Shown: positions 18,414-37,341 of the stretch, in pieces
How the letters are laid out: the number at the start of each line of letters is the position of its first letter
How positions within the stretch are numbered: the stretch's first letter is position 1
Notes under the pieces: model-generated
What the model was told of the DNA's origin: nothing
Seen by the model: the letters and a program-made list of their open reading frames with translations, nothing else
The model's database searches: none
IMG/VR virus record: IMGVR_UViG_3300021963_000160
Location: 1 to 54,899 of that record
Origin: a virus
Lineage: Duplodnaviria > Caudoviricetes
DNA length: 54,899 bases
Reading direction: 5' to 3' (one strand)
Made by a program: the position numbers and the translations under genes

Positions 18414-18990
18414 AATGAAGATAGCCGACCCGAAACAATTTTACGAAAACTACCAAGCCGATAATGTACTTGACAAACTTGATTTTGAATTAGTAGACGT
18501 ATTATTATCTGTTGATCCGACATCTGCCTTTGAATTTGGCTGTGGCTCAGGTAAAAACCTTCAATTATTAAAATCTCACAATATCGATATTGAAACATGT
18601 GGTTTAGACATAAGTATCATTAATGTACTCCAGTCCCATTTAAACGGTGTAGATAGTGTTATTCGCGGAGATGAAAGGCATTTCCCATTACGAAAGTTTG
18701 ATGTTGTTTTTACCTGCTCTGTACTTGACCACATAAAAGACATTAATAATATAATTGGTGCAATGCAAGTAATGGCAAATAAAGCCATAGTTTTAGCCGA
18801 AACAAATTCCTTTAAAAAGAATTTTTACTATAAGCACAATTACACTAAGTACGGGTTTGTAAAGCACGATTTTAAATATGTATCTACTGAAGACGGGGGG
18901 GTATACGAAATTTGGGTATATAAAACTCCTGAATATTTAGAATCACTTGCAGGTGAAACCGATGATTTAACCGATACTTACTCTTGTTAA
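18406..18990 (+). CDS. Class I SAM-dependent methyltransferase
   Basis: FEFGCGSG motif I, GLDIS, FDVVFTCSVLDHI. Confidence 0.85.
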   Translation: MNKMKIADPKQFYENYQADNVLDKLDFELVDVLLSVDPTSAFEFGCGSGKNLQLLKSHNIDIETCGLDISIINVLQSHLNGVDSVIRGDERHFPLRKFDVVFTCSVLDHIKDINNIIGAMQVMANKAIVLAETNSFKKNFYYKHNYTKYGFVKHDFKYVSTEDGGVYEIWVYKTPEYLESLAGETDDLTDTYSC

Positions 18991-18991
18991 T

Positions 18992-20458
18992 ATGTGTGGG
19001 CTTGCAGTAGTATATTATAAAAACAAGACAGGCAACTATCATTTGAATAAAATGCTTGATACCATGTCGCATCGTGGGCACGATTTTCGGACTATTCGTT
19101 ATTACGATAATTGCTCCGTTGGGTATAATAGGCTTGCCATTACCGACAGGGAAAATAACATACACGGATCAGACCACCAATGGAGGATATTTTTAAATGG
19201 CGAAATTTACAATTACAAAGAATTAGGTTTTGAAGGAGTTGAAAATAGTGTTTTAGCGCAAGGACTTGAAAAGTACGGAGTAGATTTCGTAAAACAATTA
19301 AATGGTATGTTTGTTATTGTCGCTATTTCTCCCGAGGACCAAGTTTATGTTTTTAGGGATAGATACGGTATTAAGCCCGCATATTACTATGAAGATAATA
19401 ATATGATAATTGTATCTTCTGAAATCAAACCAATATTACAACATCCGGCATATAAGTTTTCTATTAATGAATCAGCAAAAAAACAGTGGCTTACTTTCAA
19501 TAATGTGTTCACGAACGAAACATTGTTTGATAGAATCTGCAAAATGGATAAAGGTACTATTTGGAATCTAAACACTAATCAAACCACAAAATATTGGGCA
19601 TGGGAGTTTAAGCCTACTCCAATGGATTTTGAGACAGCTAAAAACGAAGTTAAACGACTTGTTATACAGGCTATAAACCGAATGATACCAAAGGAAGTTC
19701 CTTATGCAAGTTGTTTAAGCGGGGGGATAGACAGTAATATTATCGCATCTCAATTACCAAAAGAAATAGAAACTTTTTGCGTTGGGTACATTGGCCCGTT
19801 TATCGAAGATGAAACCGAATTGGCGATGGCATCAGGAAGAAACCCTAATTTAGTTTTACTTTCTTGGATAGAAAACTTTGAAGAAACAATTTACCACTTA
19901 GAAGACCTTAGGGTTGGTGCTTGTTGGAGTAATTATAGATTATTTTCTGATGTTTCATGCCGGCATAAAGTAGTTTTTGATGGCGCAGGTGCAGATGAAT
20001 TATTTGGCGGGTACCCTTGGAGATATTCCGAACCAAATTATTATGATGTTGTAAATCGCACAAAAAACGATTCTGAATTTTGCAAGACACTATTTAACCT
20101 TATATATGGTTACGACACTTTGGAAAATAGGTTTAAATTCGATGCTGAACACTTTTTAGAAGGCGTACTGCTTGTTACCGATAGAATGAGTATGGCGCAT
20201 ACACTTGAAGTAAGGGTTCCTTTCCTTGATAATGACTTGGTAGATTTCTGTTTAACATTACCAAATGAGTTTAAAATAGAGAAACGAATCTTAAAAGCTG
20301 CATTTATTGATGAATTACATCCTGATATATTAATGGGGAAGAAAAAAGGGTTTGGCTCACCCGATTGGTTTCCAGGCGAAGGGAATCAAGCTAATAAATG
20401 GGCAAACGAAGCATATAATCAATGGAAATTAATATTTAATAATTATGGAACTTTATAA
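18992..20458 (+). CDS. asnB: Asparagine synthetase B-family glutamine amidotransferase
   Basis: N-terminal Cys2 (MCGL), HRGHD, NRLAI, NGEIYNY, LSGGIDS, GAGADELFGGY, DRMSMAHTLEVRVPFLD. Confidence 0.9.
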   Translation: MCGLAVVYYKNKTGNYHLNKMLDTMSHRGHDFRTIRYYDNCSVGYNRLAITDRENNIHGSDHQWRIFLNGEIYNYKELGFEGVENSVLAQGLEKYGVDFVKQLNGMFVIVAISPEDQVYVFRDRYGIKPAYYYEDNNMIIVSSEIKPILQHPAYKFSINESAKKQWLTFNNVFTNETLFDRICKMDKGTIWNLNTNQTTKYWAWEFKPTPMDFETAKNEVKRLVIQAINRMIPKEVPYASCLSGGIDSNIIASQLPKEIETFCVGYIGPFIEDETELAMASGRNPNLVLLSWIENFEETIYHLEDLRVGACWSNYRLFSDVSCRHKVVFDGAGADELFGGYPWRYSEPNYYDVVNRTKNDSEFCKTLFNLIYGYDTLENRFKFDAEHFLEGVLLVTDRMSMAHTLEVRVPFLDNDLVDFCLTLPNEFKIEKRILKAAFIDELHPDILMGKKKGFGSPDWFPGEGNQANKWANEAYNQWKLIFNNYGTL

Positions 20459-20981
20459 CTTAGAAGAACACGGATTTATAAATCTAAACGGCAACTGGAT
20501 ACATTCCACTGCTATTATTTATCCTTGCGTAACGCTTGGAAGGAATAATATAATCGGGGCATACTCGGTTATTGGTTCAAATGGAGAAATGCGAAATGTG
20601 AATCCATCTGAATTTAAAGGAGGTGTGGTTATCGGAGATGACAATGTTATTTCGGAGCTTGTAACCATTCAGAGACCGTTTAATGAAGATGAATTTACTT
20701 TAATTGGTAATGGGAATATTATAATGGCGCATAGCCACTTTGGACACAATGTAACATTAGGTAATAACAGCGAAATATGCACAAATGTTGTACTTGGAGG
20801 ATATTCAAATATTGGAGATAATGTTAAAATCAAACTCAGCGCAACCGTTAGAAACCGAATAATAATTGGGAGCAACTCAATAGTTGGGCTAGGAAGTGCT
20901 GTTGTAAAAGATATACCTGGAGGGCAAGTGTGGATGGGGAATCCTGCAAAGTTTTATAAATTAAATAATCCGAACTCCTAA
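20445..20981 (+). CDS. Hexapeptide-repeat (left-handed beta-helix) acyltransferase
   Basis: IHSTAII, IGDDNVI, AHSHFGHN, IGSNSIVGLGSAVVKDIP...GNPAK. Confidence 0.85.
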   Translation: MELYNLEEHGFINLNGNWIHSTAIIYPCVTLGRNNIIGAYSVIGSNGEMRNVNPSEFKGGVVIGDDNVISELVTIQRPFNEDEFTLIGNGNIIMAHSHFGHNVTLGNNSEICTNVVLGGYSNIGDNVKIKLSATVRNRIIIGSNSIVGLGSAVVKDIPGGQVWMGNPAKFYKLNNPNS

Positions 20982-21739
20982 TGAAACTCTGTTTAGCTTA
21001 CACTGTTTTTACCCACGAATTACTTGAACAGTCTATTGCTAATCATATAGACTTAGTGGATGGAATTATTATTTGCTATCAGGAGATTTCAAATAAAGGC
21101 AACAAAACCGCATTTCCGATTGACAAGTTTACTCATGAAAAGATAACTATTGTTAAATACGAACCTAATCTTGCCCTTGGAACCAAATTAAATGAAGTAT
21201 GCAAACATAACCTAATGATTAAAACTGCAAAGAACAAGGGGTTTTCACATATTATTTTATCAGCTTGTGACCATTTTTATGATAAAAATCAGTTTGCGTA
21301 CGTTAAACAGCAAGTAATAGATAAGGATTATGATATTAGTTATACCAAAATGTTCACCTACTATAGAAATCCTATTTATCAAATTACCCCAATAGAAGAT
21401 TATTATATGCCTTTTATTATCAAATTGCATACTAATACTCAGGTAGAAAGTAATGTTAAAACTCCGGTACTTGTAGACCCGTCTGTAAAAGTAAATACTT
21501 GTAAAAATTGGAAACTATTTTCAGAACATGAAATAATGTTACACCATTACTCGATGATACGTTTAGACATAAAGGATAAGTTCAAAAATGCAGCAGCTTC
21601 TATTAGATGGAAACCTGAACAAGTGCAACGATTCATTTCTGAGTATGAAAACTTTTCTATTGAAGATAATAAGCCGATTGAGTACTTCCAAAACCGCAAA
21701 TGTAAAGTTGTCAGAAACTACTTTAATATAGCTAACTAA
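20981..21739 (+). CDS. Putative GT-A-like glycosyltransferase
   Basis: LAYTVF..ELLEQSI...VDGIII, ILSACDHFY (degenerate DxD), LHHYS. Confidence 0.55.
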   Translation: MKLCLAYTVFTHELLEQSIANHIDLVDGIIICYQEISNKGNKTAFPIDKFTHEKITIVKYEPNLALGTKLNEVCKHNLMIKTAKNKGFSHIILSACDHFYDKNQFAYVKQQVIDKDYDISYTKMFTYYRNPIYQITPIEDYYMPFIIKLHTNTQVESNVKTPVLVDPSVKVNTCKNWKLFSEHEIMLHHYSMIRLDIKDKFKNAAASIRWKPEQVQRFISEYENFSIEDNKPIEYFQNRKCKVVRNYFNIAN

Positions 21740-21833
21740 AAACGGTTATATGGATGCTGATTGGAAAGATGAAGAACCATTTGTAATAGATGAATTTTTA
21801 CAGAACTTTCTCAACGTAAAACAAACTACCCTT

Positions 21834-22478
21834 TTAACTCAATTTAGGAGTCTGAATACCATCATAAAACCAATAATCTTCCCCAGCAACCTTCTCTAAA
21901 CTAATCTTATTCTCCTTATACATACCTAACATATCAGTATGGAATCTCCCACCTACCTTACCAACCCCATGCTTAATACCCAAACAAATTATTTCCTTAG
22001 GTAAAAACGTTAACTTATTCTTAACATTAGTCCATAAATGACTATCCGTATAAGGATAATCATCAGCAGGCCAAGTCAATTCTAAATCCGCCTTAATTAA
22101 CGTACTCATCATACTACTTCTACTTGCATGACGAAAAACAAAATCCTTCCTTAAACCCAAATGATAATATATCGTATAATTAGGCCCAAATATATCAGGC
22201 CTCCCTGCCTTATCCCATTCTGTTACCATAACCTCAATATAACAAGGACTATACCAATCATCGCTTTCTATAAACAAAATAACATCTAAACCACAATTTC
22301 TAAGCTTATCATAACCATACCTATACCTAGGCGTTATATCACAATCATCACTAACAGGAGCATAATCAACAACCTCTATAACCTCAGGTCTTAAAGTCTG
22401 CCTATCCATCATCCTATAATACTGCTCCATAAACAAAGGCCTATCCCCTCTGTCTGGAGTTATAATTCCTACTCGCAT
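21834..22478 (-). CDS. GT-A fold (GT2-like) glycosyltransferase
   Basis: VGIITPDRGDRP, RQTLRP, ILFIESDDWY. Confidence 0.75.
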   Translation of the reverse strand: MRVGIITPDRGDRPLFMEQYYRMMDRQTLRPEVIEVVDYAPVSDDCDITPRYRYGYDKLRNCGLDVILFIESDDWYSPCYIEVMVTEWDKAGRPDIFGPNYTIYYHLGLRKDFVFRHASRSSMMSTLIKADLELTWPADDYPYTDSHLWTNVKNKLTFLPKEIICLGIKHGVGKVGGRFHTDMLGMYKENKISLEKVAGEDYWFYDGIQTPKLS

Positions 22479-22669
22479 TCGTCTGTAAATCTTTTTTCTA
22501 ATTCATCAAAATGGTCAAGTATGTGCTGAATTTGTATAGAGTATGTTATCTTAATAACATCACTCCCACTTGCAGATTTTGGTATATTCTCCATACTAAT
22601 CTGTGTTACACTCACCAGTACAAATTATACACTTACACTCACTATGCAATATGCTATCATTCATAACCA

Positions 22670-22677
22670 CAAATATA
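22670..22677 (-). promoter_or_regulatory. Bacteroidota -7 box (TATATTTG), leftward
   Basis: TAnnTTTG match at the edge of the non-coding region, upstream of two tiny ORFs and the glycosyltransferase. Confidence 0.5.
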
Positions 22678-22679
22678 AA

Positions 22680-23640
22680 ACACTTATATTACAAATAATT
22701 CAAGAGATAGATAAAAAAATAATGAGATAGATAGATATGTGAGGTTAACCCCCCGTATTACAAACGTGGCCCAAAAATAAAAATCAATTTTTTTTGATCT
22801 GGGGGGGGGTTCGTTTTTATCTTTTCCCTTTAAATTTTCAGGTTTTACCTTCCCGAGTGCTGTGAAGGTGCCGCGGTTCTGTTGTTGGATGGTGTTTATA
22901 TCATTACATTTTGCAAAATAATTACATACAAGCGTTTTAATAACTTATATATACCGTTCTTTATCTATGTAGGGGCAAAGGTAGATAATTGAACACGGGC
23001 CAAATAAACTACATCCTTTGCCTTGTCTCTTATTGTGCTGGATTGTTTTAATTTAATCCTAGTTAACATAATATAGATTATATAACTTTATCCGTTTGTT
23101 GTCGTTTGTTGGGTTTACTTTGTCTCCATGCGGTGACGAAATTAGCTTATGCTTATGTTTTGGGTGTTTTTAGGGGTGGTTTGCATGGTACTGGAGAGGG
23201 GTTAACCTCCTTTTAATCTCCTTTTAAACTTTCTTTTTTACTTTGATCCTGAAAATATTAAATTTCTTTTTATCTTTTTTTCTTGGCTGCTATTGGGTTG
23301 CGGGTTTATTTTGTTAAAAATTATTTTTTTTCTTTTCCGTTATGTTGTTGTTATGTAGAACTATTCTAAATAGCTTTATTGGTGGTTTTTGGTGTAGTTT
23401 GGCATGGTATTAGCAAAGGTTTTTTTATGTCCTTTTTATTGGGTTTTTGATCTCTTTTTAACCTTTGTTTGTTCCTTTGTTTTCAGGGGTTCCGGTGGTG
23501 GTGTCTATTATTGTTTATTTTAGTGTATTGTTTACTGGATTTTTAGAGTTTGGCACGGTTTGTCGGTTTCCTTTGTTTGCGGGGTTTGGCACGGTTTTTT
23601 GTTTTTGGTCTTGGGTTTGTAATGCAGTTAGTACAAAACA
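22680..23640. other. Long non-coding region with a G10 run and skew inversion (candidate genome end, pac site or origin)
   Basis: No credible ORF; C-run near 22750, G10 at 22801-22810, T/G-rich thereafter; transcription diverges on both sides. Confidence 0.5.
23400..23415 (+). promoter_or_regulatory. Sigma54-like -24/-12 element
   Basis: TGGCATGGTATTAGCA has the exact GG-N10-GC spacing; related TTTGGCACGGTTT copies at ~23549 and ~23585. Confidence 0.4.
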
Positions 23641-23650
23641 ATTAAACATA

Positions 23651-23776
23651 ATGATACAAAAAATTAAATTACATGCAAAAAAGAATCCAACCTATTTATT
23701 AGAAATTGGACTATGTTTATTTTTCGTTACTGCTATTCTGGTAACTGTCTTAATTTTAAGTTTTCAAAATTATTAA
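23651..23776 (+). CDS. Small single-TM membrane protein
   Basis: ATG 23651; MIQKIKLHAKKNPTYLLEIGLCLFFVTAILVTVLILSFQNY. Confidence 0.5.
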   Translation: MIQKIKLHAKKNPTYLLEIGLCLFFVTAILVTVLILSFQNY

Positions 23777-23778
23777 TT

Positions 23779-25071
23779 ATGAAAAGTAAATTATTTAGAA
23801 TCCAGCTAGAAAGTTATCAATTTTATTATAATGATAATTTATGCGAAGATAGGGACGAATTTAAGGACTTATTAAAAGGCGGATTAATTATTGAAGATTT
23901 AGATTTATGCAAATTAGATTCTGGTATTTTATTTGATAAAAATACTTGCGGTTATAATAAATTCGATAAAATATATTGGCTAGATTCTGAAGATATGCCC
24001 GAAAATATTGGTTATAACGATAAGGACGAATGTTATGACTATATAGAGAATTTAATTTATGGCTACTACTATAGAAATAACGAGGGATATTTTAGTTCAG
24101 ACGATAATTATCTTATCTATAGGGACGAATACTACCATGAAGATTCATTTGACTATCATAATTTAACCGACATTAGCGGAAATTTATATTCTACAGATGA
24201 CGTTTGTTATTGCGAAGATTCAGGAGATTATGAACTACAGGACAATTGTTATTATTCAGATATTGACAATTGCTATTATTCGGATTCGGATAATATGCCC
24301 GAAAATAAAAAAGGATTAAAAAACTACCATGATTCAAATATTGATTTTAAGAACGAAAATAGTAAATATAGAATAGGATTCGAGATTGAAAAAGAAGATT
24401 CAAATTTTACTAATTTTGACAAATTACGCGAAATTGGTTGGGACGCGGAGCGGGACGGCAGTTTGGATAGTCAAACGGGGTTTGAGATGGTTAGTGCAGT
24501 ATATGACTTGATGGATTTAAAAACTTTTAAAGAAGATACCAGCGAAATTAAGGACTTTATAAACGCGGATTATTCGCGTTCATGTGGCGGCCATATTAAT
24601 ATAAGTATTCAGGACTTAACAAATATTGAAGTATTCGAACTAATCAAAGGTTATGCCCCCTTAATATTTGCAATGTATTATGGACGTATTGAAAATACAT
24701 ACTGCAAAGCTAAAAAAGTAGAATTAAACGACATGGAACGATACAGCGCGTTTAATTTCACCAAAAGGAACGGTATATTAGAAATTCGTATATTTTCGGC
24801 CGTCCCTAATTTAGATACGTTAATTTTTAGGACTGAATTATTACAATTTATGTTTAAAAATAGTCGTAAGGGCAGCGCCTCCGTTATTGGTATGTTATTG
24901 AATGAAGATAGTAAATTAACAAAATTATTGAAAATTGTATATTCGGACGAAAAGTATAAAAAATTAGTAGACAGGACTATAAATTATACGGACGTTTACT
25001 CTACATTAAAAGACATTAAACAAACTGAAAACAAATTAAACAAGTTAAACAAATCAAAATTATGTGCATAG
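23779..25071 (+). CDS. Amidoligase (COOH-NH2 ligase fold) with Tyr/Asp/Cys-rich N-terminal region
   Basis: IGFEIEKE, ERDGSL..GFEMVS, SCGGHINIS, RYSAFN, LEIRIF motifs; start moved to ATG 23779. Confidence 0.8.
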   Translation: MKSKLFRIQLESYQFYYNDNLCEDRDEFKDLLKGGLIIEDLDLCKLDSGILFDKNTCGYNKFDKIYWLDSEDMPENIGYNDKDECYDYIENLIYGYYYRNNEGYFSSDDNYLIYRDEYYHEDSFDYHNLTDISGNLYSTDDVCYCEDSGDYELQDNCYYSDIDNCYYSDSDNMPENKKGLKNYHDSNIDFKNENSKYRIGFEIEKEDSNFTNFDKLREIGWDAERDGSLDSQTGFEMVSAVYDLMDLKTFKEDTSEIKDFINADYSRSCGGHINISIQDLTNIEVFELIKGYAPLIFAMYYGRIENTYCKAKKVELNDMERYSAFNFTKRNGILEIRIFSAVPNLDTLIFRTELLQFMFKNSRKGSASVIGMLLNEDSKLTKLLKIVYSDEKYKKLVDRTINYTDVYSTLKDIKQTENKLNKLNKSKLCA

Positions 25072-25811
25072 CAATATTAAATTTAAAAGGAACATTAAGT
25101 AAGGAAACTCTACAGACTTGTTGGAACTCAAATCCTCACGGAGCTGGATTAATCTATAATGACTCGAACGGGCTACAAATTTTTAAAGAACTCAAGTCTT
25201 TTCGGGTATTCTATAATGAATATATAAAGCAAAGGAAATTAAACAAAGATTCGAAATTTGCTATTCATTTCAGAATTTCAACGAGCGGCAAAATAGATTT
25301 AACAAATTGCCACCCGTTTAAAATTAATAAAGATACGGCCTTTATTCATAACGGTATGATTGACATTAAACCACTAAATAAAAAAGTAAGTGACACGTTT
25401 ACGTTTAACGAACTAATTTTTAAGAAATTAGGCAAAGATTGGCAAAGTAATAAGGCTATGATTGAACTATTAGAAAACTATATTTATGGCAGTAAAATAG
25501 TAGTTTTAAATTCAGATAACAGCCATGTAATTTTAAATGAAGATAGCGGACATTGGGACGGTGATAATTGGTATTCAAATAATAGCTATAAACCAGCGAA
25601 AATTAGTAATTTTAAAAATTATGATAGCTACAAAGATTTTTATTATTCAGATATGGACGACATTAAACAAACTTTTACGGACTTTTGCGAGTCATGTTTA
25701 GAAGAGTCCGACACCATATATCTTCGTGACTATAATATGAATTGTTGTAGCAAATGTGCGGAATTGTGGCAGCCGTCAAAAATATCTAAATATCTTCACC
25801 ATGCTATATAG
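25062..25811 (+). CDS. Class II (Ntn) glutamine amidotransferase
   Basis: MCIAI (Cys2), NPHGAG, HFRISTSG, NCHPF, HNGMI, SDT. Confidence 0.9.
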   Translation: MCIAILNLKGTLSKETLQTCWNSNPHGAGLIYNDSNGLQIFKELKSFRVFYNEYIKQRKLNKDSKFAIHFRISTSGKIDLTNCHPFKINKDTAFIHNGMIDIKPLNKKVSDTFTFNELIFKKLGKDWQSNKAMIELLENYIYGSKIVVLNSDNSHVILNEDSGHWDGDNWYSNNSYKPAKISNFKNYDSYKDFYYSDMDDIKQTFTDFCESCLEESDTIYLRDYNMNCCSKCAELWQPSKISKYLHHAI

Positions 25812-28598: not shown

Positions 28599-29036
28599 AT
28601 GACAGACGCAGAAAAATTACAACTCGAAGAAGATAGAACGACTTTTGAATTAAAATGCCTCCTAGATATTAAAGATTTTAAAATATTTCAAGACGAAGCA
28701 GAAAAAATATGGATTTTAGACAAGTTAAAACAAAATAATTTTAACGTCAGTAAAACTGCTATTGAAATTCGCATCCAGCGGAGTCATCTTTACAATAAAA
28801 TCATTAAATACAAAATTCCAATAAACAGAAAACTAAAACACAGTTATTTAAACGGGAGACACATGGTAATTTTCAATCCTAATGGGGATAGGTTTAATTT
28901 TATTATCAAAAATGAGCCAGAACTAACGGAAACTATAAAAAGTGGCTTACAATTCGTTTATATACGAAAATCAAATTTAGCTTACATGGCCAAAAAAATA
29001 TTCACCCGGATAGAAAATTTAACAAACGTCAATTAA
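28599..29036 (+). CDS. Fis-type (HTH_8) DNA-binding protein
   Basis: EAEKIWILDKLKQNNFNVSKTAIEIRIQRSHLYNKIIKYKI resembles the C-terminal HTH of NtrC-family sigma54 activators; no AAA+ domain. Confidence 0.75.
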   Translation: MTDAEKLQLEEDRTTFELKCLLDIKDFKIFQDEAEKIWILDKLKQNNFNVSKTAIEIRIQRSHLYNKIIKYKIPINRKLKHSYLNGRHMVIFNPNGDRFNFIIKNEPELTETIKSGLQFVYIRKSNLAYMAKKIFTRIENLTNVN

Positions 29037-29045
29037 TAAATGCAC

Positions 29046-29107
29046 CAATTTAGAAACATTCTAAATTGTAAAAAGCGTTAAACGTATTATTTGAAATATT
29101 ACTTTTG
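29046..29107 (+). promoter_or_regulatory. Palindromic operator plus -7 promoter box
   Basis: CAATTTAGAA-ACA-TTCTAAATTG (29046-29068) and TACTTTTG (29100-29107). Confidence 0.6.
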
Positions 29108-29132
29108 CCTAAACAATTAAAGAAAAATAAAA

Positions 29133-29360
29133 ATGAAAAAACTAATTAGCTTAATGTTACTCTTAACCTTGCTTAGCTGCGAAAAAGAGAAAGTAGAATG
29201 TAATTGTGGTTTAGTCCTTAGCGACAACGTAAGTGATTATTCAGTTGTAATCCGTAACGATTGCAGCAAGAAAGAAAAGAGATTTTATTTGCAGCCTGGT
29301 GATTGGATCAATGCCCATGTAGGAAGTAACTATTGTATTACAAACGTAAGCAGTTGGTAG
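29133..29360 (+). CDS. Small lipoprotein
   Basis: MKKLISLMLLLTLLS-C signal peptide/lipobox, further Cys residues. Confidence 0.7.
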   Translation: MKKLISLMLLLTLLSCEKEKVECNCGLVLSDNVSDYSVVIRNDCSKKEKRFYLQPGDWINAHVGSNYCITNVSSW

Positions 29361-29481
29361 TATGATACAGATAGCAGTAGTAGTAATTATTATAGTTTTA
29401 TTAGTAAAAATAAAACGTAATACGGAAAAGTAAGTAAACTTGACTTTTAGCAAGAATTTTAAACTCGCAATTAAACAAAAC

Positions 29482-29745
29482 ATGAAAAAGACATTAGAAC
29501 TAACATTATCCGAAAGTGAAGGTGTAAAGATAGAAGTATCCTGCGAGGTGCTACGAATTGAAACTGACAATCCTGCGATACATCCAGATGACCCGAATCA
29601 ATCCACGATAACAGAGTATTGGTGCAAGACAATTAATAAATTAAAGATAAACGGTTTTGAACTTGGAATTTATAACCATAAGACTTTGAAAGAAATCGAA
29701 AGATTAGTGGAAGAACAACTTGAAGAAAATCCTGAATTATTTTAA
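29482..29745 (+). CDS. Hypothetical protein
   Basis: Start moved to ATG 29482; ends 6 nt before the repeat array. Confidence 0.55.
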   Translation: MKKTLELTLSESEGVKIEVSCEVLRIETDNPAIHPDDPNQSTITEYWCKTINKLKINGFELGIYNHKTLKEIERLVEEQLEENPELF

Positions 29746-29751
29746 GAGAAA

Positions 29752-29878
29752 TAACGGTACTTGGCTTAGCGAAGAAGTGGAAAAGCAAGCCTAATCTTTC
29801 GGTTTAGAAACCAAAATAACAAACACAAAACCAACATTGAATTAAGCCTAAAACCGCTTTTTTGCTAAACCAATGTTA
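29752..29878. repeat. Unit A1 (attC-like hairpin, no ORF)
   Basis: TAAC-GGTAC-TTGGCTTAGCGAAGAAGTGG ... CCGCTTTTTTGCTAAACCAA-T-GTTA. Confidence 0.8.
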
Positions 29879-29892
29879 TAACTCGTTTTTTT

Positions 29893-30078
29893 ATGAAAAA
29901 ATATTTATTGCAATTAATAGAAGTAGAAATAGAAAACACAATGAAAAAGTTAATTCATTGGAACAAAATGGAAGATAGGTTTAAATCAGACCCTTATCAT
30001 ATACGTTGCAAATTAGCAATGGAACGTAAATTGGAAAAAATTAGTCGTTATAAAACTCGGGTGCAAAATGAGTTATAA
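29893..30078 (+). CDS. Cargo of unit B1 (29875-30079): hypothetical helical protein
   Basis: 61 aa; stop TAA lies within the terminal TAAC; unit ends GTTATAACTCGTTTT / AAAATGAGTTATAAC. Confidence 0.65.
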   Translation: MKKYLLQLIEVEIENTMKKLIHWNKMEDRFKSDPYHIRCKLAMERKLEKISRYKTRVQNEL

Positions 30079-30162
30079 CGGTATCGGGCTTGGCGAAGGT
30101 GGGCTTGTAGGATGCTCAATTTTAGCAGGATGTGTATGCCCACTTTTGCCAAACCCGTGTTA
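30076..30162. repeat. Unit A2 (attC-like hairpin, no ORF)
   Basis: TAAC-GGTAT-CGGGCTTGGCGAAGGTGGGC ... GCCCACTTTTGCCAAACCCG-T-GTTA. Confidence 0.85.
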
Positions 30163-30234
30163 TATGAAGTGCCGACTTATTTACGATAAAGCCCAATTGG
30201 AACACTAAACAGAAAAACAAAAAGAAAAAAAGCG

Positions 30235-30924
30235 ATGGCAATAAAAGATAAATATAATGTAAAAAGTGTATCAACCGACCAATGCAAAGAATGGCTGTTG
30301 AAGAAACACTACTTACATAGAATGACATCATTTACTTACTCATTTGGATTGTATGAAAATAATTTATTAGTTGGCGTTATTACTTTTGGAAATGCAGTTC
30401 CTTTGACAATGAAAAAATCATTATTTGGAGAAAAGTATATGGATTTGGTTTACGAATTAAATAGACTATGTACGAATGATGATTTAGATAAAAACGCAAC
30501 ATCTTTTTTTGTGGCTGAATCTTTTAAACTACTTCCAAAGCCATTGATAATTGTAAGCTATGCAGATAAATCAGTTGGACATAATGGGTATATTTACCAA
30601 GCAACTAATTTCATATTTACTGGAGAAAGCCATACTCAATTGGATTGGAAATTGAAAGGCAAAGAACATATACATAGCAGAACTTTAATGGATGAATTTG
30701 CATTTACAGAAGATAGAATTGAAAAGTTGAAAGAAAAGTATGGAGACCAATTATATCAAGTTAGGAGAGAACCAAAATACAGGTATGTTTATGTATTGGC
30801 TAATAAAAAACAAAAAAAAGAGATAATGAACAGCAAATTATTTAAATCAAAACCATACCCAAAAGGAGAAAACACAAGATATGATGCAAGTTATAAACCA
30901 AGTATTCAAACAGAATTATTTTAA
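30235..30924 (+). CDS. Mom-family (GNAT-fold) DNA adenine modification protein; cargo of unit B2 (30159-31003)
   Basis: KKHYLHR, FGLY..LVGVITFG, YELNRL, IVSYADKSVGHNGYIYQATNFIFTG, K.RY; unit ends GTTATATGAAGTGCC / GGCATTTCATATAAC. Confidence 0.75.
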   Translation: MAIKDKYNVKSVSTDQCKEWLLKKHYLHRMTSFTYSFGLYENNLLVGVITFGNAVPLTMKKSLFGEKYMDLVYELNRLCTNDDLDKNATSFFVAESFKLLPKPLIIVSYADKSVGHNGYIYQATNFIFTGESHTQLDWKLKGKEHIHSRTLMDEFAFTEDRIEKLKEKYGDQLYQVRREPKYRYVYVLANKKQKKEIMNSKLFKSKPYPKGENTRYDASYKPSIQTELF

Positions 30925-31085
30925 AAGTGCGATGGCTTTTTTCTTTTTGTTTTTCCTTCACGGAACTTCAATTGGAACACGTCAGCAAGGCATTTCATAT
31001 AACGGTATCGGGCTATATGCAGTGCGAAATAACACACAAAAGATGATACGAAGCACAACAGTAATAATTTTAAAATATTTTTAGC

Positions 31086-31748
31086 GTGGAAATTAAAAAA
31101 ATAAATCCAGTTGATTGTAAGGAATGGCTTTTGACCAAACACTATGCAAAAAGAATGACTCCAATAAATAAGGCGTTTGGATTAGTTATAAATAATTCTA
31201 TTGTAGGTGTTTGTACTTTTGCCATACCAGCATCAAGGTTTGAATTTTCATTACAGCCATACGAATTAAATAGGTTAGTGGTTAATGAAAATTTGGGCAA
31301 AAACATACTTTCTCAATTTGTAGGAATGTGTTTAAGAGAATTTGGAGAATCTGCAATAATTGTTTCGTATGCAGATGAAAATTATGGACACCACGGATAT
31401 ATTTATCAGGCTACAAATTGGATTTACACTGGTCGTTCATCTGCTGAAAAAAGAATGTTTGTTAATGGACAAGAATTGCACAGGAGAACACTATACGACA
31501 AATACGGAACATCATCAATACCAGAATTAGAGAAACTTGGATTAAATATTACTTACAATAAACAGCTTGGTAAGCATAGATATTTCCAATTTACTGGCAC
31601 AAAAAAAGATAGCAAGATACTGAAAGAAGAAGTAATATTAAAATACGGCACACAACCATATCCAAAAGGAAACAATACAAGATATGATTCTGGTAATGAT
31701 ATTAAGATAAATATAAAACCAAAAGCAGTACAAACATCACTATTCTAA
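31086..31748 (+). CDS. Second Mom-family protein; cargo of unit A3 (31000-31859)
   Basis: TKHYAKR, IVGVCTF, YELNRL, IVSYADENYGHHGYIYQATNWIYTG, KHRY; GTG start; unit arms CGGGCTATATGCAGTGC / GCATTGCATATAGCCCG. Confidence 0.75.
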   Translation: MEIKKINPVDCKEWLLTKHYAKRMTPINKAFGLVINNSIVGVCTFAIPASRFEFSLQPYELNRLVVNENLGKNILSQFVGMCLREFGESAIIVSYADENYGHHGYIYQATNWIYTGRSSAEKRMFVNGQELHRRTLYDKYGTSSIPELEKLGLNITYNKQLGKHRYFQFTGTKKDSKILKEEVILKYGTQPYPKGNNTRYDSGNDIKINIKPKAVQTSLF

Positions 31749-31855
31749 TGGCTTTGAAAAAGCCAAAGTGCGGTGGGAAAAATATTTTAAAATTATGGTC
31801 AAATTAGAACAAAACTCGATACGAAGCACGGAACTAAGCATTGCATATAGCCCGT

Positions 31856-31884
31856 GTTATAGCATCGTTTTAATGTGCTATAAC
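31856..31884. repeat. Unit B3: minimal 29-nt empty unit
   Basis: GTTATAGCA-TCGTTTTAATG-TGCTATAAC. Confidence 0.8.
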
Positions 31885-32006
31885 GTTTTGCAGCTAACCG
31901 AAGGCAGGGAATTTAACCACAAAACAACAATGGAAACACGAAACTTGAACACACCACAAAACTATCTTAGGAGCAGTAAAACCCTGCTTTTGGTTAGGTG
32001 CTGTTA
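31881..32006. repeat. Unit A4 (attC-like hairpin, no ORF)
   Basis: TAAC-GTTTT-GCAGCTAACCGAAGGCAGGG ... CCCTGCTTTTGGTTAGGTGC-T-GTTA. Confidence 0.8.
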
Positions 32007-32044
32007 TAAGAAGTAGCGAATTATTAACGATAAATTTAATTAAA

Positions 32045-32215
32045 ATGAATATAACATTAGCAAAAGTAAAAAGAACACTCGAAAAAGATTATGGGTGGAG
32101 TAATATGAATATTGAAAGTCAAAAATTTTTAATTGACGAATTGATAAAAGATACACTCAAAATTATAGATAATGAATTGCGAACTCACAAAGGGATTTCC
32201 ATTAAGAAACGCTAA
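32045..32215 (+). CDS. Cargo of unit B4 (32003-32234): 56-aa hypothetical protein
   Basis: Manual translation MNITLAKVKRTLEKDYGWSNMNIESQKFLIDELIKDTLKIIDNELRTHKGISIKKR*; unit ends GTTATAAGAAGTAGC / GCTATTTCTTATAAC. Confidence 0.6.
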   Translation: MNITLAKVKRTLEKDYGWSNMNIESQKFLIDELIKDTLKIIDNELRTHKGISIKKR

Positions 32216-32278
32216 TGTAGCTATTTCTTATAACTAATCGGTAAGTATTATAAAACTAAATATTAAACTATTAAAAAT

Positions 32279-32500
32279 ATGCAAATAACAGTTAATTACG
32301 ATTTAAAATGGCAGCTAAAAACAGCCCCGAATTATCAATTTACAGACGATGGAATATGTATTAATACATTAAGAGGTAAGATAGTAAGAAAAGTAGTTGT
32401 AAGCAGCACTAAAGGCTATTGTATAAACGGTAAATTTAGAAGTGTATTGCAACTGCGAAAAGAATTAATTAAGATTGAAAAAATAATTTGTCCATTTTAG
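32279..32500 (+). CDS. Hypothetical protein (NUMOD/HNH-associated-like fragment possible)
   Basis: 73 aa; YQFTDDGICINTLRGKIVRKVV...GYCING. Confidence 0.55.
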   Translation: MQITVNYDLKWQLKTAPNYQFTDDGICINTLRGKIVRKVVVSSTKGYCINGKFRSVLQLRKELIKIEKIICPF

Positions 32501-32512
32501 AACGTTTCTAAA
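32496..32512. promoter_or_regulatory. Palindromic operator copy
   Basis: TTTAGAA-CGT-TTCTAAA with TTTG ending 43 nt downstream. Confidence 0.5.
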
Positions 32513-32880
32513 TTACTTAAACCAACAAATAATTAAAACAATATCTCTTAATTTGAATAATGAAATTTAAAGCACTTAGGAAGTTTAGCAAGCAAGAGGT
32601 TGTGGGATACCTGAGTAAAGTTGGTAAAGTAAGAATTTATACGATTGAGGGGGTTGATTATACAATAACTGAATTTAAAAAACATTTTAATAATTTTGAA
32701 TTATGACAAAGAAAGGAAGATATTTTTTTAGAGACATACCGTCAATTACATGCAATAAACACGAAGTTATTCGAGCTACCAGAGTTTGTACTTGTTGCGG
32801 TAAATATGTGGACCCATTCAATATATTGTGCGATCCTTGTTATGCAAAGAAATAACCAACCAAGAAATAATAATTAAAAT

Positions 32881-33132
32881 ATGAACATACAAAACATTTT
32901 TAAAAGTAAACCGAAATTTGAAACATGTACCTTGGCAATAGCCGACTACTTTAAAAGAAACGGTAGTTTAAGCCAGTTAGAATGTTGTCAATTATTCCTT
33001 AATTGGAATCTTCACAAAGTAGTGGATCGTTTAAAGTTGCACCACAACATGAAGTTTGAAAAAACTAAAAAGCTTGTCAAAACTAGGTACGGCAAAACAA
33101 CCGAAATTGTAACCTATCATTTAGTAAGATGA
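32881..33132 (+). CDS. Small winged-HTH protein
   Basis: IADYFKRNGSLSQLEC.QLF....LHKVVDRLK...KTRYGKTTEIVTYHL. Confidence 0.6.
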   Translation: MNIQNIFKSKPKFETCTLAIADYFKRNGSLSQLECCQLFLNWNLHKVVDRLKLHHNMKFEKTKKLVKTRYGKTTEIVTYHLVR

Positions 33133-34326: not shown

Positions 34327-34547
34327 GAAAAATAAGATTAGAATACTCAAGAGAGCAAGGATGTTTTCACTTTGAAGATATTAACAAAGACAATAAAAAT
34401 ACATTTAGTTATTTTACAATTAAAAAAGAGGTTGATAGTAATATAGCTTCTGAATTTGTAAAAATGTATGATAGTAAATATCCAAAAAGAAATATATCAA
34501 TACAGGCAATGAAAGATGAATTTAATAACTTTATCAATGGAAGGTAA
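34323..34547 (+). CDS. Hypothetical protein
   Basis: 74 aa, coupled to both neighbours. Confidence 0.55.
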   Translation: MRKIRLEYSREQGCFHFEDINKDNKNTFSYFTIKKEVDSNIASEFVKMYDSKYPKRNISIQAMKDEFNNFINGR

Positions 34548-35955
34548 ATTACCACCACAGGCAATAGATTTAGAAGAAATAGTAATAGGGGCTGCAATGC
34601 TTGAAAAAACGGCATTTGGTAAAGTATCAACTATTTTAGATAAAAAAGATTTTTATAAGGAGCAACATGGTATAGTTTGGGATATTATGAGTGAACTATA
34701 TAATGAAAATTTACCAATAGATATTATGTCTGTTATTGAAAAGTTAAGGTCAAAAGGTAAATTAGATTTAATAGGTGGTGCACATTTTATAAGCCAACTA
34801 ACAATAAGGGTTGCTTCTGCTGCAAATATTGAATATCATTCTACAATTATAAAACAGTTATCACTACAAAGAAATATTATTGAACTTTCAACGGACTACC
34901 TAAATAAAGCATGGCAAAATGGAATAGACCCGTTTGAATTTAGCAAAGAATTTGCATGGAAACTTGAAAATATCACATCTTCACTTACGCCTGATATGAG
35001 AGATATAGGAAAAGTAGCTAAATTAACTTATAGCATGATGCGTGAAGCAAGTTTAAATGAAAGTGATATAATTGGGTATCCAAGTTCAATAAGTGCCTTA
35101 AATGATAAATTATTAGGTTATTCAGCACCTGATTTTACAATAGTTGCAGCAGGAACCGGAGAAGGTAAATCTACGTTTATGTTAAATGAAGTTAAGGCAC
35201 TTGCAAAACAAGGCATTCCATGTGCTGTATTTAGTTTAGAAATGAACGATTATCAACTATTATGGAAAATGTTTAGTTCTGATTTAGATATAGATGTTAA
35301 AAGTATAAGAAAGGGCAAAATGGATGAAGGTAGATGGGATAGTTTAAGTGATAATGTTAAAGAATATGCAAAGATGCCAGTTTACTTTTATGATTCAGGG
35401 GGATTAACGATAGAAAAGTTTTGTGGCATAGTTAAAGAAGCTGTAAGAAAAAACGGTGTAAAAATGGTTTTTATAGATTACATTCAACTATTGATGGTCC
35501 AGAACACTAAGGAGTTCGGCAATAGAGAAGCTCAGGTTAATTTTATATCTAAAAGGATTAAAAGATTAGCAAGGGAATTAAGTATACCTATAATGGCTTT
35601 AAGTCAATTATCAAGATTAGAAAAAGGAACTAAAAGGAAATATAAACTTTCAGATTTAAGAGAATCGGGAGCATTAGAGCAAGATTCAGATAACGTAATA
35701 TTTCTATATAATCCATCTTATCACGGAGTAGAAGAAATGGAGTTTTATGATAAAAACGAAAACGGTAATTACGAAAAACAAACTATTACATTTGACCATG
35801 AAGATTGTTTAATTTTGATAGAAAAATGCAGATTGGGAGAAACAGGAATAGTGAGATGTAAATTTAAAGGTCAATTTTCACGACATGAAGATTTACCAAA
35901 TAACCAACGAATACAAAAGACAGAAGACTTTAGTTTTACTGATAGACCATTTTAA
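34537..35955 (+). CDS. dnaB: Replicative DNA helicase
   Basis: LPPQAIDLEE, Walker A AAGTGEGKS, FSLEM, FIDYIQL, LSQLSR, DLRESGALEQDSD. Confidence 0.95.
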   Translation: MEGKLPPQAIDLEEIVIGAAMLEKTAFGKVSTILDKKDFYKEQHGIVWDIMSELYNENLPIDIMSVIEKLRSKGKLDLIGGAHFISQLTIRVASAANIEYHSTIIKQLSLQRNIIELSTDYLNKAWQNGIDPFEFSKEFAWKLENITSSLTPDMRDIGKVAKLTYSMMREASLNESDIIGYPSSISALNDKLLGYSAPDFTIVAAGTGEGKSTFMLNEVKALAKQGIPCAVFSLEMNDYQLLWKMFSSDLDIDVKSIRKGKMDEGRWDSLSDNVKEYAKMPVYFYDSGGLTIEKFCGIVKEAVRKNGVKMVFIDYIQLLMVQNTKEFGNREAQVNFISKRIKRLARELSIPIMALSQLSRLEKGTKRKYKLSDLRESGALEQDSDNVIFLYNPSYHGVEEMEFYDKNENGNYEKQTITFDHEDCLILIEKCRLGETGIVRCKFKGQFSRHEDLPNNQRIQKTEDFSFTDRPF

Positions 35956-35956
35956 T

Positions 35957-36571
35957 ATGAAGCCTAAATCTTGCCGACAATGTAAAACTAAATTCATTCC
36001 GGATAGACCTTTGCAAATGGTTTGTTCTTTTATGTGTAGTGTTGAATATACCAAAGCTAATCAGGCGAAAAAAGCTAAAAAGGATTGGGTTAAAGAAAAG
36101 GCAGAACGAAAGGAAAAGATAACCACGTTAAGCGAATGGAAAGGACTATTACAGGAAGTAATTAATGGAATAGTACGATTGATTGACAAAGACATGGGAT
36201 GTATTGCCACAGGAACTAAAACAGGCAAGATGAATGCAGGGCATTATATAAGTCGTGGCAGTAACGATACAATACGTTTTAATCTTCATAATATTCATCT
36301 CCAGTCAGAGCATTCAAATTCCTTTAATTCAGGCGATACAATACGTTATCAGGATGGAGTAGTAAGAATGTATGGCAAAGATTATTTAGAGTTATTAAAT
36401 AGCCTTAAATCAACTAAACCAATAAACTTAACTATTGAAACCATAAAGGATAAAATAATTATTGCAAAATTAATCAGAAAGGAATTAATAGAATTAGGGA
36501 ATAGATACACATCAGCCGAAAGAATCCAGTTAAGACACGATTTGAACAATAGAATAGGAATATATATATGA
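35957..36571 (+). CDS. ninG: NinG/Rap-family recombination endonuclease
   Basis: CxxC...CS..C N-terminus, VRLID, NAGHYISRG...RFNLHNIHLQ...N. Confidence 0.85.
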   Translation: MKPKSCRQCKTKFIPDRPLQMVCSFMCSVEYTKANQAKKAKKDWVKEKAERKEKITTLSEWKGLLQEVINGIVRLIDKDMGCIATGTKTGKMNAGHYISRGSNDTIRFNLHNIHLQSEHSNSFNSGDTIRYQDGVVRMYGKDYLELLNSLKSTKPINLTIETIKDKIIIAKLIRKELIELGNRYTSAERIQLRHDLNNRIGIYI

Positions 36572-37341
36572 AGAAATACATATCATTTAGTGGTGGAGTT
36601 GAAAGTTCAACAATGGCAATTCTTTATGGCAAAGGTGCTAAATTAATATGGGTAGATACTGGTGCAGAACACAAAGAACTTTATGACAGATTAGATATGT
36701 TTGAAAAATACATATTAGAACTACATAAAGGAGATTGTGAACTAATACGATTAAAAGGCTCTTATTCTACCAAAGGTGTAAAAGTAGATAGTTTGATTGA
36801 TGCAATAAGAATAGGACAATTTATGCCATCAGGGCAAAAAAGATTTTGCACATCAGCATTCAAAATCAAACCTATTGATAATTATTTAAAGTCACTTGGC
36901 GAAGTAGAACTTATGATAGGTTTTAATTTGGATGAAGAAGGTAGGACAGGAAATTTAGAAAAAATATCAAGTATTAATTACACATATCCTTTAATTAATG
37001 ACGGCTACACAAGAAAAGACTGTGAAGCTATTTTAGAATTTCACGGAATGCATCCATCCTTCCCTGTTTATATGAATAGAGGTGGGTGTAAGATGTGTTT
37101 TTATAAGTCACAAAAAGAATACAAAGCAATGTATTATTTAGATAGGGATACTTTTAACGAGATTAAAGAATTAGAAAATGATATTCAAGATAAAAGGGTT
37201 AAGCATTTTTCAATAATGGAATCAGGCAAATCAATGAATCAACTTGAGCAAGAATGCAAGGAAGAAATACCATTTGATTTTACAGAAATTTATAAAGACA
37301 GAGAAAGTAATCGTTCTTGTGGAGCATTTTGTAGAAGATAA
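36568..37341 (+). CDS. PAPS-reductase-like adenine nucleotide alpha-hydrolase
   Basis: ISFSGGVESS PP-loop, DTGAEH, RFCT..FKIKP, GCKMCF, C-terminal SCGAFC. Confidence 0.8.
   Translation: MKKYISFSGGVESSTMAILYGKGAKLIWVDTGAEHKELYDRLDMFEKYILELHKGDCELIRLKGSYSTKGVKVDSLIDAIRIGQFMPSGQKRFCTSAFKIKPIDNYLKSLGEVELMIGFNLDEEGRTGNLEKISSINYTYPLINDGYTRKDCEAILEFHGMHPSFPVYMNRGGCKMCFYKSQKEYKAMYYLDRDTFNEIKELENDIQDKRVKHFSIMESGKSMNQLEQECKEEIPFDFTEIYKDRESNRSCGAFCRR

Follow-up and report, generated by a model that had tools for sequence, protein, structure and literature searches.

What kind of element is a run of eight abutting inverted-repeat units in a phage genome, and in what form do its parts move? We addressed this for positions 29752-32234 (plus strand) of IMG/VR record IMGVR_UViG_3300021963_000160, a sequence of 54,899 nucleotides (nt) which was analysed over its whole length (the window), and which represents the genome of a Flavobacterium-type phage at an estimated completeness of 90%. 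Two kinds of unit alternate in this region, the A units starting with TAAC and ending with GTTA and the B units starting with GTTATA and ending with TATAAC, and some of them contain an open reading frame (ORF). Our conclusion is that the region is probably an integrase-less array of four cassettes, of the type known as CALINs, in which attC sites cluster without an integron integrase, and that it belongs to an integron-like system for the recombination of folded single strands which is common in Bacteroidota and their phages. The A and B units are two parts of one cassette, with A being an attC-like hairpin and B the cargo flanked by its own arms, since related phages differ by whole A+B pairs joined at TAAC|G. 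We have high confidence in the reading of the array as cassettes, and moderate confidence in folded-strand recombination by a tyrosine recombinase as the underlying mechanism.

Anatomy of the array

A preliminary description of this locus had proposed eight abutting stems, alternating between A and B, with arms that pair with their own partner, and these were all confirmed at the positions listed in Table 1. The B stems measure 15, 15, 10 and 15 bp (B1 to B4): those at 29875/30079, 30159/31003 and 32003/32234 consist of 14 Watson-Crick pairs and one G:T pair each, while the GTTATA...TATAAC pair at 31856/31884 extends to 10 bp. Of the 63 GTTATA/TATAAC pairs in the window whose members are within 1.5 kb of each other, these four are the best, save for a chance pair of 11 bp at 2682/3782. 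The same stems shrink to 10, 10, 10 and 9 bp on the minus strand, because each mismatch is a G:T pair on the plus strand. The A stems contain 20, 20, 18 and 20 pairs (A1 to A4), preceded by TAAC and 4-5 nt and followed by 0-1 nt and GTTA, against a background maximum of 15 pairs elsewhere in the window, and all four A units have the AAC...GTT ends (R box) of an imperfect hairpin. A chain detector requiring at least four abutting units with a mean score of at least 12 returned the array as the single chain on the plus strand of the window, whereas there were no chains on the minus strand, in 20 shuffles of the window or in 200 shuffles of the region 29000-33000.

RNA folding of the plus strand gave z-scores of -3.65 (A1), -4.91 (A2), -4.47 (A4) and -4.24 (B3). 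The minus strand of A2 folds well too (z = -6.16), yet at -34.4 kcal/mol compared to -41.1 kcal/mol for the plus strand. The four ORFs of the array are all on the plus strand and lie singly within their units, as had been described, and the stop codon of the B1 ORF is the TAA of TAAC. At its 3' end the array reads TATAAC|TAATCGG, which is where homology to a syntenic relative (L039; L and G numbers are our labels for loci and genomes) resumes. The motif TATAACGNTNT, allowing one mismatch, has 37 matches in the window versus 26.6 ± 5.1 expected, which is barely over chance. Searches of Rfam gave no matches for the whole window at the gathering threshold or for seven array loci, and only one noise match for the region 29600-32400 at E values up to 5.

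Table 1. Units of the array at 29752-32234 of the window
Unit	Positions	Strand	Features
A1	29752..29878	+	attC-like hairpin of cassette 1: TAAC, 5-nt spacer, 20-pair stem, A/C-rich loop of ~70 nt, T, GTTA; no ORF
B1	29875..30079	+	Body of cassette 1 with 15-bp terminal arms; ORF 29893-30078, 61 aa, no Pfam family
A2	30076..30162	+	attC-like hairpin of cassette 2: 87 nt, 20-pair stem
B2	30159..31003	+	Body of cassette 2 with 15-bp arms; Mom-family ORF 30235-30924, 229 aa
A3	31000..31859	+	A-type hairpin of 18 pairs, unusual in having a gene in its loop: second Mom-family ORF 31086-31748, 220 aa, GTG start
B3	31856..31884	+	Empty B hairpin: 29 nt, 10-bp stem, 9-nt loop CGTTTTAAT
A4	31881..32006	+	attC-like hairpin of cassette 4: 126 nt, 20-pair stem
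B4	32003..32234	+	Body of cassette 4 with 15-bp arms; ORF 32045-32215, 56 aa, no Pfam family

Related units in phages and Bacteroidota genomes

A scan of viral contigs with 16-mers gave 28 loci, which by rough estimate is about the chance expectation, and loci were judged by their stems instead. Motif scans filtered in this way found arrays of up to 19 units in viral contigs (19 in L009, 15 in L011, 11 in L036, and 10 each in L003 and L032), and all seven Flavobacterium psychrophilum phages fetched have a chain of TAACG-hairpin-TGTTA and GTTA...TAAC units among small early genes. The same hairpin family is present in genome assemblies of Bacteroidota (Mucilaginibacter, Chitinophagaceae, Ferruginibacter and Bacteroidia contigs), where a 15-base scan found arrays in at least eight loci among the matches listed (L045-L124), and homologous A and B ends with other cargo occur elsewhere, as the preliminary description had anticipated. 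The stem of A2 is nearly identical in the viral contigs L011, L025, L028, L030 and L036 and in a Ferruginibacter chromosome (L179). The Mucilaginibacter arboris genome G003 contains 54 copies of the A 5' motif, mostly on contigs of 1-11 kb. Assemblies may break at the repeated hairpins, and arrays are perhaps far longer than what is visible; the two closest homologues of the recombinase described below in related genomes are located at about 290 nt from contig ends.

The collected stems covary while their geometry is kept. In 64 unique B stems, positions 5-10 vary freely with all four kinds of Watson-Crick pair at each, position 11 is a G:T pair in 48, pairing persists at positions 12-14 in 49-52, and the stem runs out at around position 15. 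In the relative L039 the loop of B3 is kept and its stem changed in a compensating way. The 53 unique A stems together contain 824 Watson-Crick pairs, 87 G:T, 22 T:G, 23 C:A and 4 A:C, meaning that on the plus strand wobble pairs (G:T and T:G) outnumber C:A and A:C by 109 to 27; G:T peaks at positions 11 and 14, and C:A is found at position 5 in 14 of the stems. The asymmetric spacer noted in the preliminary description is retained, with a 5' spacer of 5 nt in 35/53, starting with G in every spacer listed, and a 3' spacer consisting of a single T in 34/53. These 53 further A units were collected via a search for TAAC...GTTA and do not represent an independent test of the AAC/GTT ends, and one unit of L167 has GTTG...CAAC cores in place of GTTA/TAAC. 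With regard to protein content, when every window ORF of 50 aa or longer was compared by tblastn to 30 array loci, no protein was common to more than two of them, and no linked gene was evident in these loci within 5-10 kb of the phage arrays.

The loops of the A units have features of their own. That of A1 (29779-29849) shares 76-84% identity with loops of hairpins found between genes in F. psychrophilum phages and in related contigs, and loops of the A1 type are kept where the surrounding stems differ (L003 145-210 and 586-647, L004, L005, L006, L008 and L009), which is the reverse of what would be expected for a merely variable loop. Many A loops contain 2-4 direct repeats of a motif like TTGGAACAC or TAGAAGCAC, and many keep a length close to 126 nt, or ~190 nt in those of Sphingobacteriia and Chitinophagia.

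Exchange of cassettes between relatives

Comparison of close relatives revealed gain, loss and reordering exactly at the AAC core, as had been proposed. The syntenic relative L039 is about 90% identical to the window, but its homology ends at 29746 and returns at 32229, and between these breakpoints it has an empty B unit, another A unit and a B unit with a different ORF, followed by the same TATAAC|TAATCG flank. Among the F. psychrophilum phages, the A unit that comes after the shared sequence ...CCGCTAAC| exists in three versions: F7 has one, 2A and 6H have another, and D15 has a third. A single A+B pair, no more and no less, is absent from 6H but found in 2A, D15 and F7, and identical left cassettes have different right neighbours, with the partner switch occurring right after TAAC. 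A lone A2+B2 cassette is present in L030 in an otherwise unrelated context, with non-coding parts which are 94-97% identical, homology that stops at TTATAAC on either side, and three small ORFs in place of the Mom gene, while L030, L167 and L168 have the same flanks with different cassettes. Partner switches at TAAC|G were seen in F7, 2A, 6H, D15, L039, L030, L167 and L168, at a resolution limited to the common TAACG.

Over ten related loci, 80 of the 125 unique ends of homology blocks are within 8 nt of a core, compared to 8.9 ± 2.9 at random placement (with a maximum of 20 in 2000 trials), although such ends are not independent events. The blocks begin at TAAC and finish either at TAAC or just beyond GTTA, which identifies the A+B pair as the mobile unit; an A unit is sometimes common to relatives by itself.

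The insertion point shared by L030, L167 and L168 has further features. The ORF directly 5' of the cassettes in L167 and L168 ends with the TAA of the first TAAC, and at that position L030 and L169 have TAAG and different content. About 700 nt upstream of the insertion point there is an ORF which by eye resembles an HNH endonuclease (L030 11514-12146, and the relatives L167, L168 and L169).

A tyrosine recombinase beside related arrays

The preliminary description had asked for a co-occurring tyrosine recombinase, and one is found beside the arrays of five bacterial genomes and five viral contigs. In all five bacterial genomes chosen solely for their hairpins, the best match to the integron-integrase profile TIGR02249 adjoins an array, and of 80 viral loci kept for encoding a relative of the recombinase, five have at least two strong A hairpins just upstream. 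One of these five is the L011 contig with its array of 15 units, in which the recombinase gene starts 20 nt past the last TAAC. The array-linked recombinases have the domains PF13495 (SAM_4) and PF00589 (catalytic), and their best NCBIfam match is NF040815, 'site-specific tyrosine recombinase/integron integrase'. When the array is read along the folding strand, the gene is always at its 3' end, and on plasmid R100 intI1 is likewise located 3' of the folded bottom strand of the aadA1 attC (...CTAAC|G...GTTAG...). The lysogeny integrase of the F. psychrophilum phages was also considered as the array enzyme, and was rejected at 29% identity over 141 residues and 85 bits to NF040815.

Two of the recombinase loci showed additional features. 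In M. arboris (L195, ~10290-10650), the region between the recombinase stop codon and the first hairpin contains about 2.5 direct copies of a 45-nt unit, each with its own inverted repeat, CAATACAAAA...TTTTGTATTG, and judged from its sequence this could be an attI-like region with recombinase-binding repeats. In L197 (4255-5058, genome G005), the recombinase frame beside the array has in-frame TGA codons, which may reflect either another genetic code in this 1.3-Mb genome or a broken gene, and the recombinase gene is divergent from the cargo, as in classical integrons.

Comparison with known systems

The arrays share many properties with integrons and CALINs: an imperfect hairpin bounded by AAC...GTT with an unpaired spacer and a variable loop, an enrichment of G:T pairs on one strand, a cassette boundary at AAC, the cassette's own half of the R box at the far end of the cargo, co-oriented single-gene cassettes, and a tyrosine recombinase gene located 3' of the array when the folding strand is read. 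In integrons the bottom strands of attC sites have 1.24 versus 0.39 G:T mispairs (PMC5027507, in the text available). Near-identical hairpins are found in one chromosome, as in sedentary integrons, and on the folding strand a canonical cassette consists of attC, GTT half-box, cargo and AAC half-box, which matches the A+B order that was derived independently, from the phage comparisons. There are also clear differences. The array-linked recombinase is missing the central part of the integron-integrase profile and lies closer to XerA; the arms span 14-15 bp, are cassette-specific and have a G:T pair at position 11, compared to a 7-bp consensus in integrons; the spacer is 5 versus 1 nt, compared to about 6-7 nt on both sides in the aadA1 attC of R100 (a single example); and the phage ORFs are on the folding strand.

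CALINs in phages are already known. A 2023 screen reported three integrons, one In0 and 17 CALINs in 10,705 phage genomes, including the virulent Polaribacter phage P12002L (host in the Flavobacteriaceae), with two predicted attC sites and a CALIN in which attC sites flank DNA methyltransferase genes, and IntI1 was able to recombine one of these sites into attI1, at G|TTRRRY (PMC9892861, in the text available). We find that P12002L has TAAC|G-hairpin-GTTA units and long B arms around the methyltransferase gene gp54 and the Mom-like gp53, and a second time at 29.2-32.7 kb. Its genes are on the hairpin strand, and NinG is close by, which is also the case in the window. As far as the available main text of that paper goes, it does not mention Flavobacterium or any term starting with Bacteroid-, nor does it describe B arms, long regular arrays, a linked recombinase lineage or a rule for ORF orientation (PMC9892861). 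In the open-licence literature, no account was found of arrays in Flavobacterium phages, although Supplementary Table S1 of PMC9892861 may list further phages; nor did that literature yield the linked recombinase lineage, the regular A+B architecture, the cassette-specific arms of 14-15 bp, or phage ORFs on the folding strand. For bacteria, IntegronFinder 2.0 reported almost no integrons in Bacteroidetes among the RefSeq complete genomes (PMC9024848, in the text available).

Two other systems also place modules between repeated sites. Promoter/stem-loop (PeSL) cassettes of T4-type phages resemble the arrays in that, within hypervariable regions of phages, accessory ORFs lie between small repeated stem-loops at which modules are swapped, with regulatory stem-loops mediating modular shuffling and mini-circles being reported (PMC2839356 and PMC4122927, in the text available). 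However, a PeSL combines promoter and terminator and depends on homology between similar copies, whereas here only TAACG is common, the stems differ and a tyrosine recombinase is linked; a Bacteroidota-type promoter motif was not seen by eye in the A units read, no promoter scan having been made. Sites of the pdif type are 28 bp long, and no double-stranded 11-6-11 site was seen when the junction sequences were read by eye, which is not the same as a search aimed at it. Like the arrays, the dif/pdif systems of Acinetobacter plasmids have modules between alternately oriented sites and an implicated Xer-type recombinase, but pdif sites are double-stranded binding sites for XerC/XerD (PMC13141974 and others, in the text available), while the sequences on either side of TAAC and GTTA are not duplex inverted repeats and the arms pair solely by folding of one strand.

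With regard to the wider proposals of the preliminary description, a structure-directed cassette system in Bacteroidota phages is supported by the homologous ends and the exchange at the cores, whereas the idea of two independent classes of unit was not borne out, as the mobile unit is the A+B pair. That either type can be empty or loaded applies to the window, where A3 contains a Mom gene and B3 is empty, but it does not reflect the general pattern, with 53/57 A units being empty and 60/66 B units containing at least one ORF. The proposed separate, non-canonical system is better described as integron-type on the basis of its AAC/GTT R-box logic, place of crossover, G:T bias and Xer/IntI-clade recombinase.

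Strand orientation and alternative explanations

The stems could act in RNA. Long-range and local hairpins would then bracket each early gene and serve to process or stabilise a polycistronic transcript, in an RNase III-like manner as in T7, and swapping would follow as a by-product when repeated regulatory elements recombine, as it does for PeSLs. The strong RNA folds of the plus strand would suit such a role, as would the conserved position of the G:T pair at one helical turn from the stem base, the conserved lengths and motifs of the A loops, which suggest a function beyond that of a variable loop, and the precedent of PeSLs for shuffling via regulatory stem-loops (PMC2839356, PMC4122927). 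The orientation of the genes bears on this explanation from both sides: in strong viral B units (n = 69) the folding, G:T-tolerant strand is the ORF strand in 57, the opposite strand in two, and ten are empty, whereas in bacterial B units (n = 26) the ORF is opposite to the folding strand in 21 and on the same strand in two, with three being empty, making the hairpin family antisense to the genes. A favoured strand that is sense in phages and antisense in bacteria is hard to explain as mRNA structure, and folding of a DNA strand fits better for that reason. Other findings also argue against a role in RNA: the junctions share just TAACG with unrelated sequence on both sides, something which homologous recombination does not explain, a solitary cassette is found in a foreign context (L030), there is a tyrosine recombinase beside arrays, no Rfam family matches, and the window genome (which does not include the host) has no RNase III gene. 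We consider the RNA explanation to be decidedly unlikely.

Alternatively, the array could be an inert relic, or be reshuffled without a dedicated enzyme, if hairpins bring TAACG repeats together and slippage, template switching or relaxed phage recombination does the rest. Inverted-repeat elements are known to undergo exact deletions between the short repeats at the feet of their hairpins, the window genome is without a recombinase, and the F. psychrophilum arrays differ between near-identical phages though their lysogeny integrase is only distantly related to the array family. However, slippage gives loss, and not the gain of unrelated cassettes or insertion at a bare TAAC within unrelated surroundings, some phage contigs carry a recombinase beside the array, and a reader of the structure is called for because asymmetric features (the 5/1 spacer and G:T pairs at fixed positions) are conserved; this explanation is therefore unlikely as well. 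Single-strand, strand-specific recognition of a hairpin with a short target beside it is also a property of IS200/IS605 elements and of repetitive extragenic palindromes with their associated transposases (REP/RAYT), and the units might be non-autonomous elements of the IS200/IS605 kind, or similar to miniature inverted-repeat transposable elements, which insert 3' of TAAC and are moved by a HUH (Y1) transposase of the host. The strand-specific folding and the 4-nt target-like core at 5 nt from the hairpin foot are in line with this, and the same terminal tetranucleotide on each unit would allow tandem build-up. However, IS200/IS605-type transposases read sequence as well as shape, whereas these hairpins vary freely in sequence, no Y1 transposase is linked (zero PF01797 candidates in the window genome), and the enzyme beside the arrays is a tyrosine recombinase of the Xer/IntI clade, making such an origin highly improbable.

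The reading as an integron-like cassette array has to be weighed against several observations which speak against it. The window genome has zero candidates each for PF00589 (tyrosine recombinases), PF00239 (serine recombinases) and PF01797 (Y1 transposases), and the array is classed as CALIN-like for this reason; it may no longer be active and could be a relic. The 53 unique A stems showed no extrahelical bases. The array-linked recombinases score below the curated cut-offs (101-207 versus 265 bits for TIGR02249, and 155-215 versus 220 bits for NF040815), and they match TIGR02249 at 1-180 and 238-315, leaving approximately 180-238 unmatched, a portion which we take to be the IntI-specific domain. 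Among solved structures, archaeal XerA rather than IntI is the closest to them. When the search was turned round, from recombinase to hairpin, only 4/22 recombinase loci in 41 genomes of one family had a hairpin in their 1.5-kb flanks, with seven loci cut by contig ends. The aadA1 attC of R100, the one canonical attC examined, was not picked up by our A-unit template, and the dependence between homology-block ends adds to these points. Finally, all four ORFs in the window are on the folding strand, and cassettes with an ORF on that strand have never been observed in integrons according to Nivina et al. (PMC5027507, in the text available).

Proposed mechanism of cassette exchange

Read on the folding (+) strand, each cassette consists of G, spacer, A hairpin, T, GTTA with a cassette-specific arm, cargo, complementary arm and TAAC. 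The A unit would be the equivalent of attC, with its AAC/GTT R box, unpaired spacer of 5 versus 1 nt, stem of about 20 bp and variable loop, and its G:T pairs would let one strand alone fold well. The two B arms are predicted to be the halves of one stem, which in an excised circle would come to lie directly under the A stem. This would give a single long hairpin with about 15 bp in its outer stem, about 20 bp in its inner stem and an internal loop of 5 versus 1 nt between them, in which G:T pairs would be located about 11 bp from the loop on either side, a structure that would resemble two recombinase-binding arms about a central region. Integration at AAC would then part the B arms, leaving one at either end of the cargo. 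The crossover would take place in or beside the invariant TAACG, comparable to cleavage at AA|C on the bottom strand in integrons (PMC5027507, in the text available), and the putative enzyme is a tyrosine recombinase of the Xer/IntI clade acting in trans, provided by the host or by a co-infecting phage. The cargo would come from a pool of accessory cassettes of phages, where genes for DNA modification are the most frequent of those that could be named.

Cargo and neighbouring genes

The two Mom-family ORFs of the window match Pfam family PF25680 at 144.1 bits (B2) and 96.6 bits (A3), well over the cut-off of 27.1. In a set of 79 ORFs from array cargo, the families N6_N4_Mtase (9), Mom (2), Dam (2) and PAPS_reduct (2) were found next to one match to the Acb2/Tad1 hairpin domain and several nuclease families, while the majority had no family. 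DNA methyltransferases are the commonest named cargo elsewhere, and the cargo may have a role against host restriction. Cargo of bacterial arrays (L177 3012-3431; L175 4750-5586; L179 9776-11023) includes a PIN-domain protein, a PDDEXK_2 transposase-like protein, a sigma-70/DUF6596 protein, tetratricopeptide repeat (TPR) proteins and domains of unknown function (DUFs), and such cargo is similar to what sedentary integrons contain.

A second level of modularity was seen within the loaded units. Both Mom genes of the window are inside an inner, perfect inverted repeat of 19 bp, rich in poly-A/poly-T (30212-30230/30937-30955 in B2 and 31064-31082/31778-31796 in A3), and both are between direct repeats, of which GCGRTGG adjoins the inner stem and another, of 12 nt, lies more distally. 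B2 has the 12-nt repeat CAATTGGAACAC on either side, and A3 has the direct repeat GATACGAAGCAC. The shell of B2 is 94-97% identical in L030 (12958-13920) and 77-92% identical in L014 (719-1501), and where the window has Mom within it, L030 has three small ORFs and L014 a DNA methyltransferase. The direct repeat GCGRTGG delimits the cargo, and the switch of cargo is located right at the start codon and just past the stop codon.

Elsewhere in the window, an ORF at 28599-29036 (145 aa), about 700 nt upstream of the array, has a weak match to the Fis-type HTH_8 family (22.3 bits versus a cut-off of 22). The plus strand of 17697-25811 encodes an S-adenosylmethionine (SAM) methyltransferase, an asparagine-synthase-like amidotransferase, a hexapeptide acyltransferase and another protein resembling glutamine amidotransferases (GATase-like), and further downstream there are DnaB (34516-35955), NinG (35885-36571) and a protein resembling 3'-phosphoadenosine-5'-phosphosulfate (PAPS) reductase (36568-37341). 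Together with the two Mom genes, this cluster and the downstream genes suggest a heavy investment in DNA or surface modification.

Implications for Bacteroidota and their phages

The results also allow for a broader view, which we put forward tentatively and do not regard as the expected outcome: Bacteroidota and their phages could have their own integron lineage, mostly missed by canonical finders, in which an XerA-like recombinase without the IntI-specific domain acts on long folded sites made up of an A hairpin and cassette-specific arms of 14-15 bp. The phages would have a separate pool with the genes on the folding strand, serving as a swappable store of DNA-modification and counter-defence genes. 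Bacterial integron cassettes have been reported to store anti-phage defence systems (bioRxiv 10.1101/2024.07.02.601686, in the text available), and a counter-defence store in phages would, if true, mirror this. Even without this broader view, if the reading as an integron-like system holds, cassette exchange of the integron type would extend past the bacterial groups where it is usually sought, and phages themselves would carry and swap DNA methyltransferases, Mom-type and other accessory genes in this way, which would explain in concrete mechanistic terms how the accessory regions of Flavobacteriia phages come to be mosaic. It would also give a testable pair of recombinase and site, with sites that are long, programmable and defined by structure, while the combination of TAACG, hairpin, TGTTA and paired arms would be a simple signature delimiting phage accessory genes, including candidate counter-defence genes.

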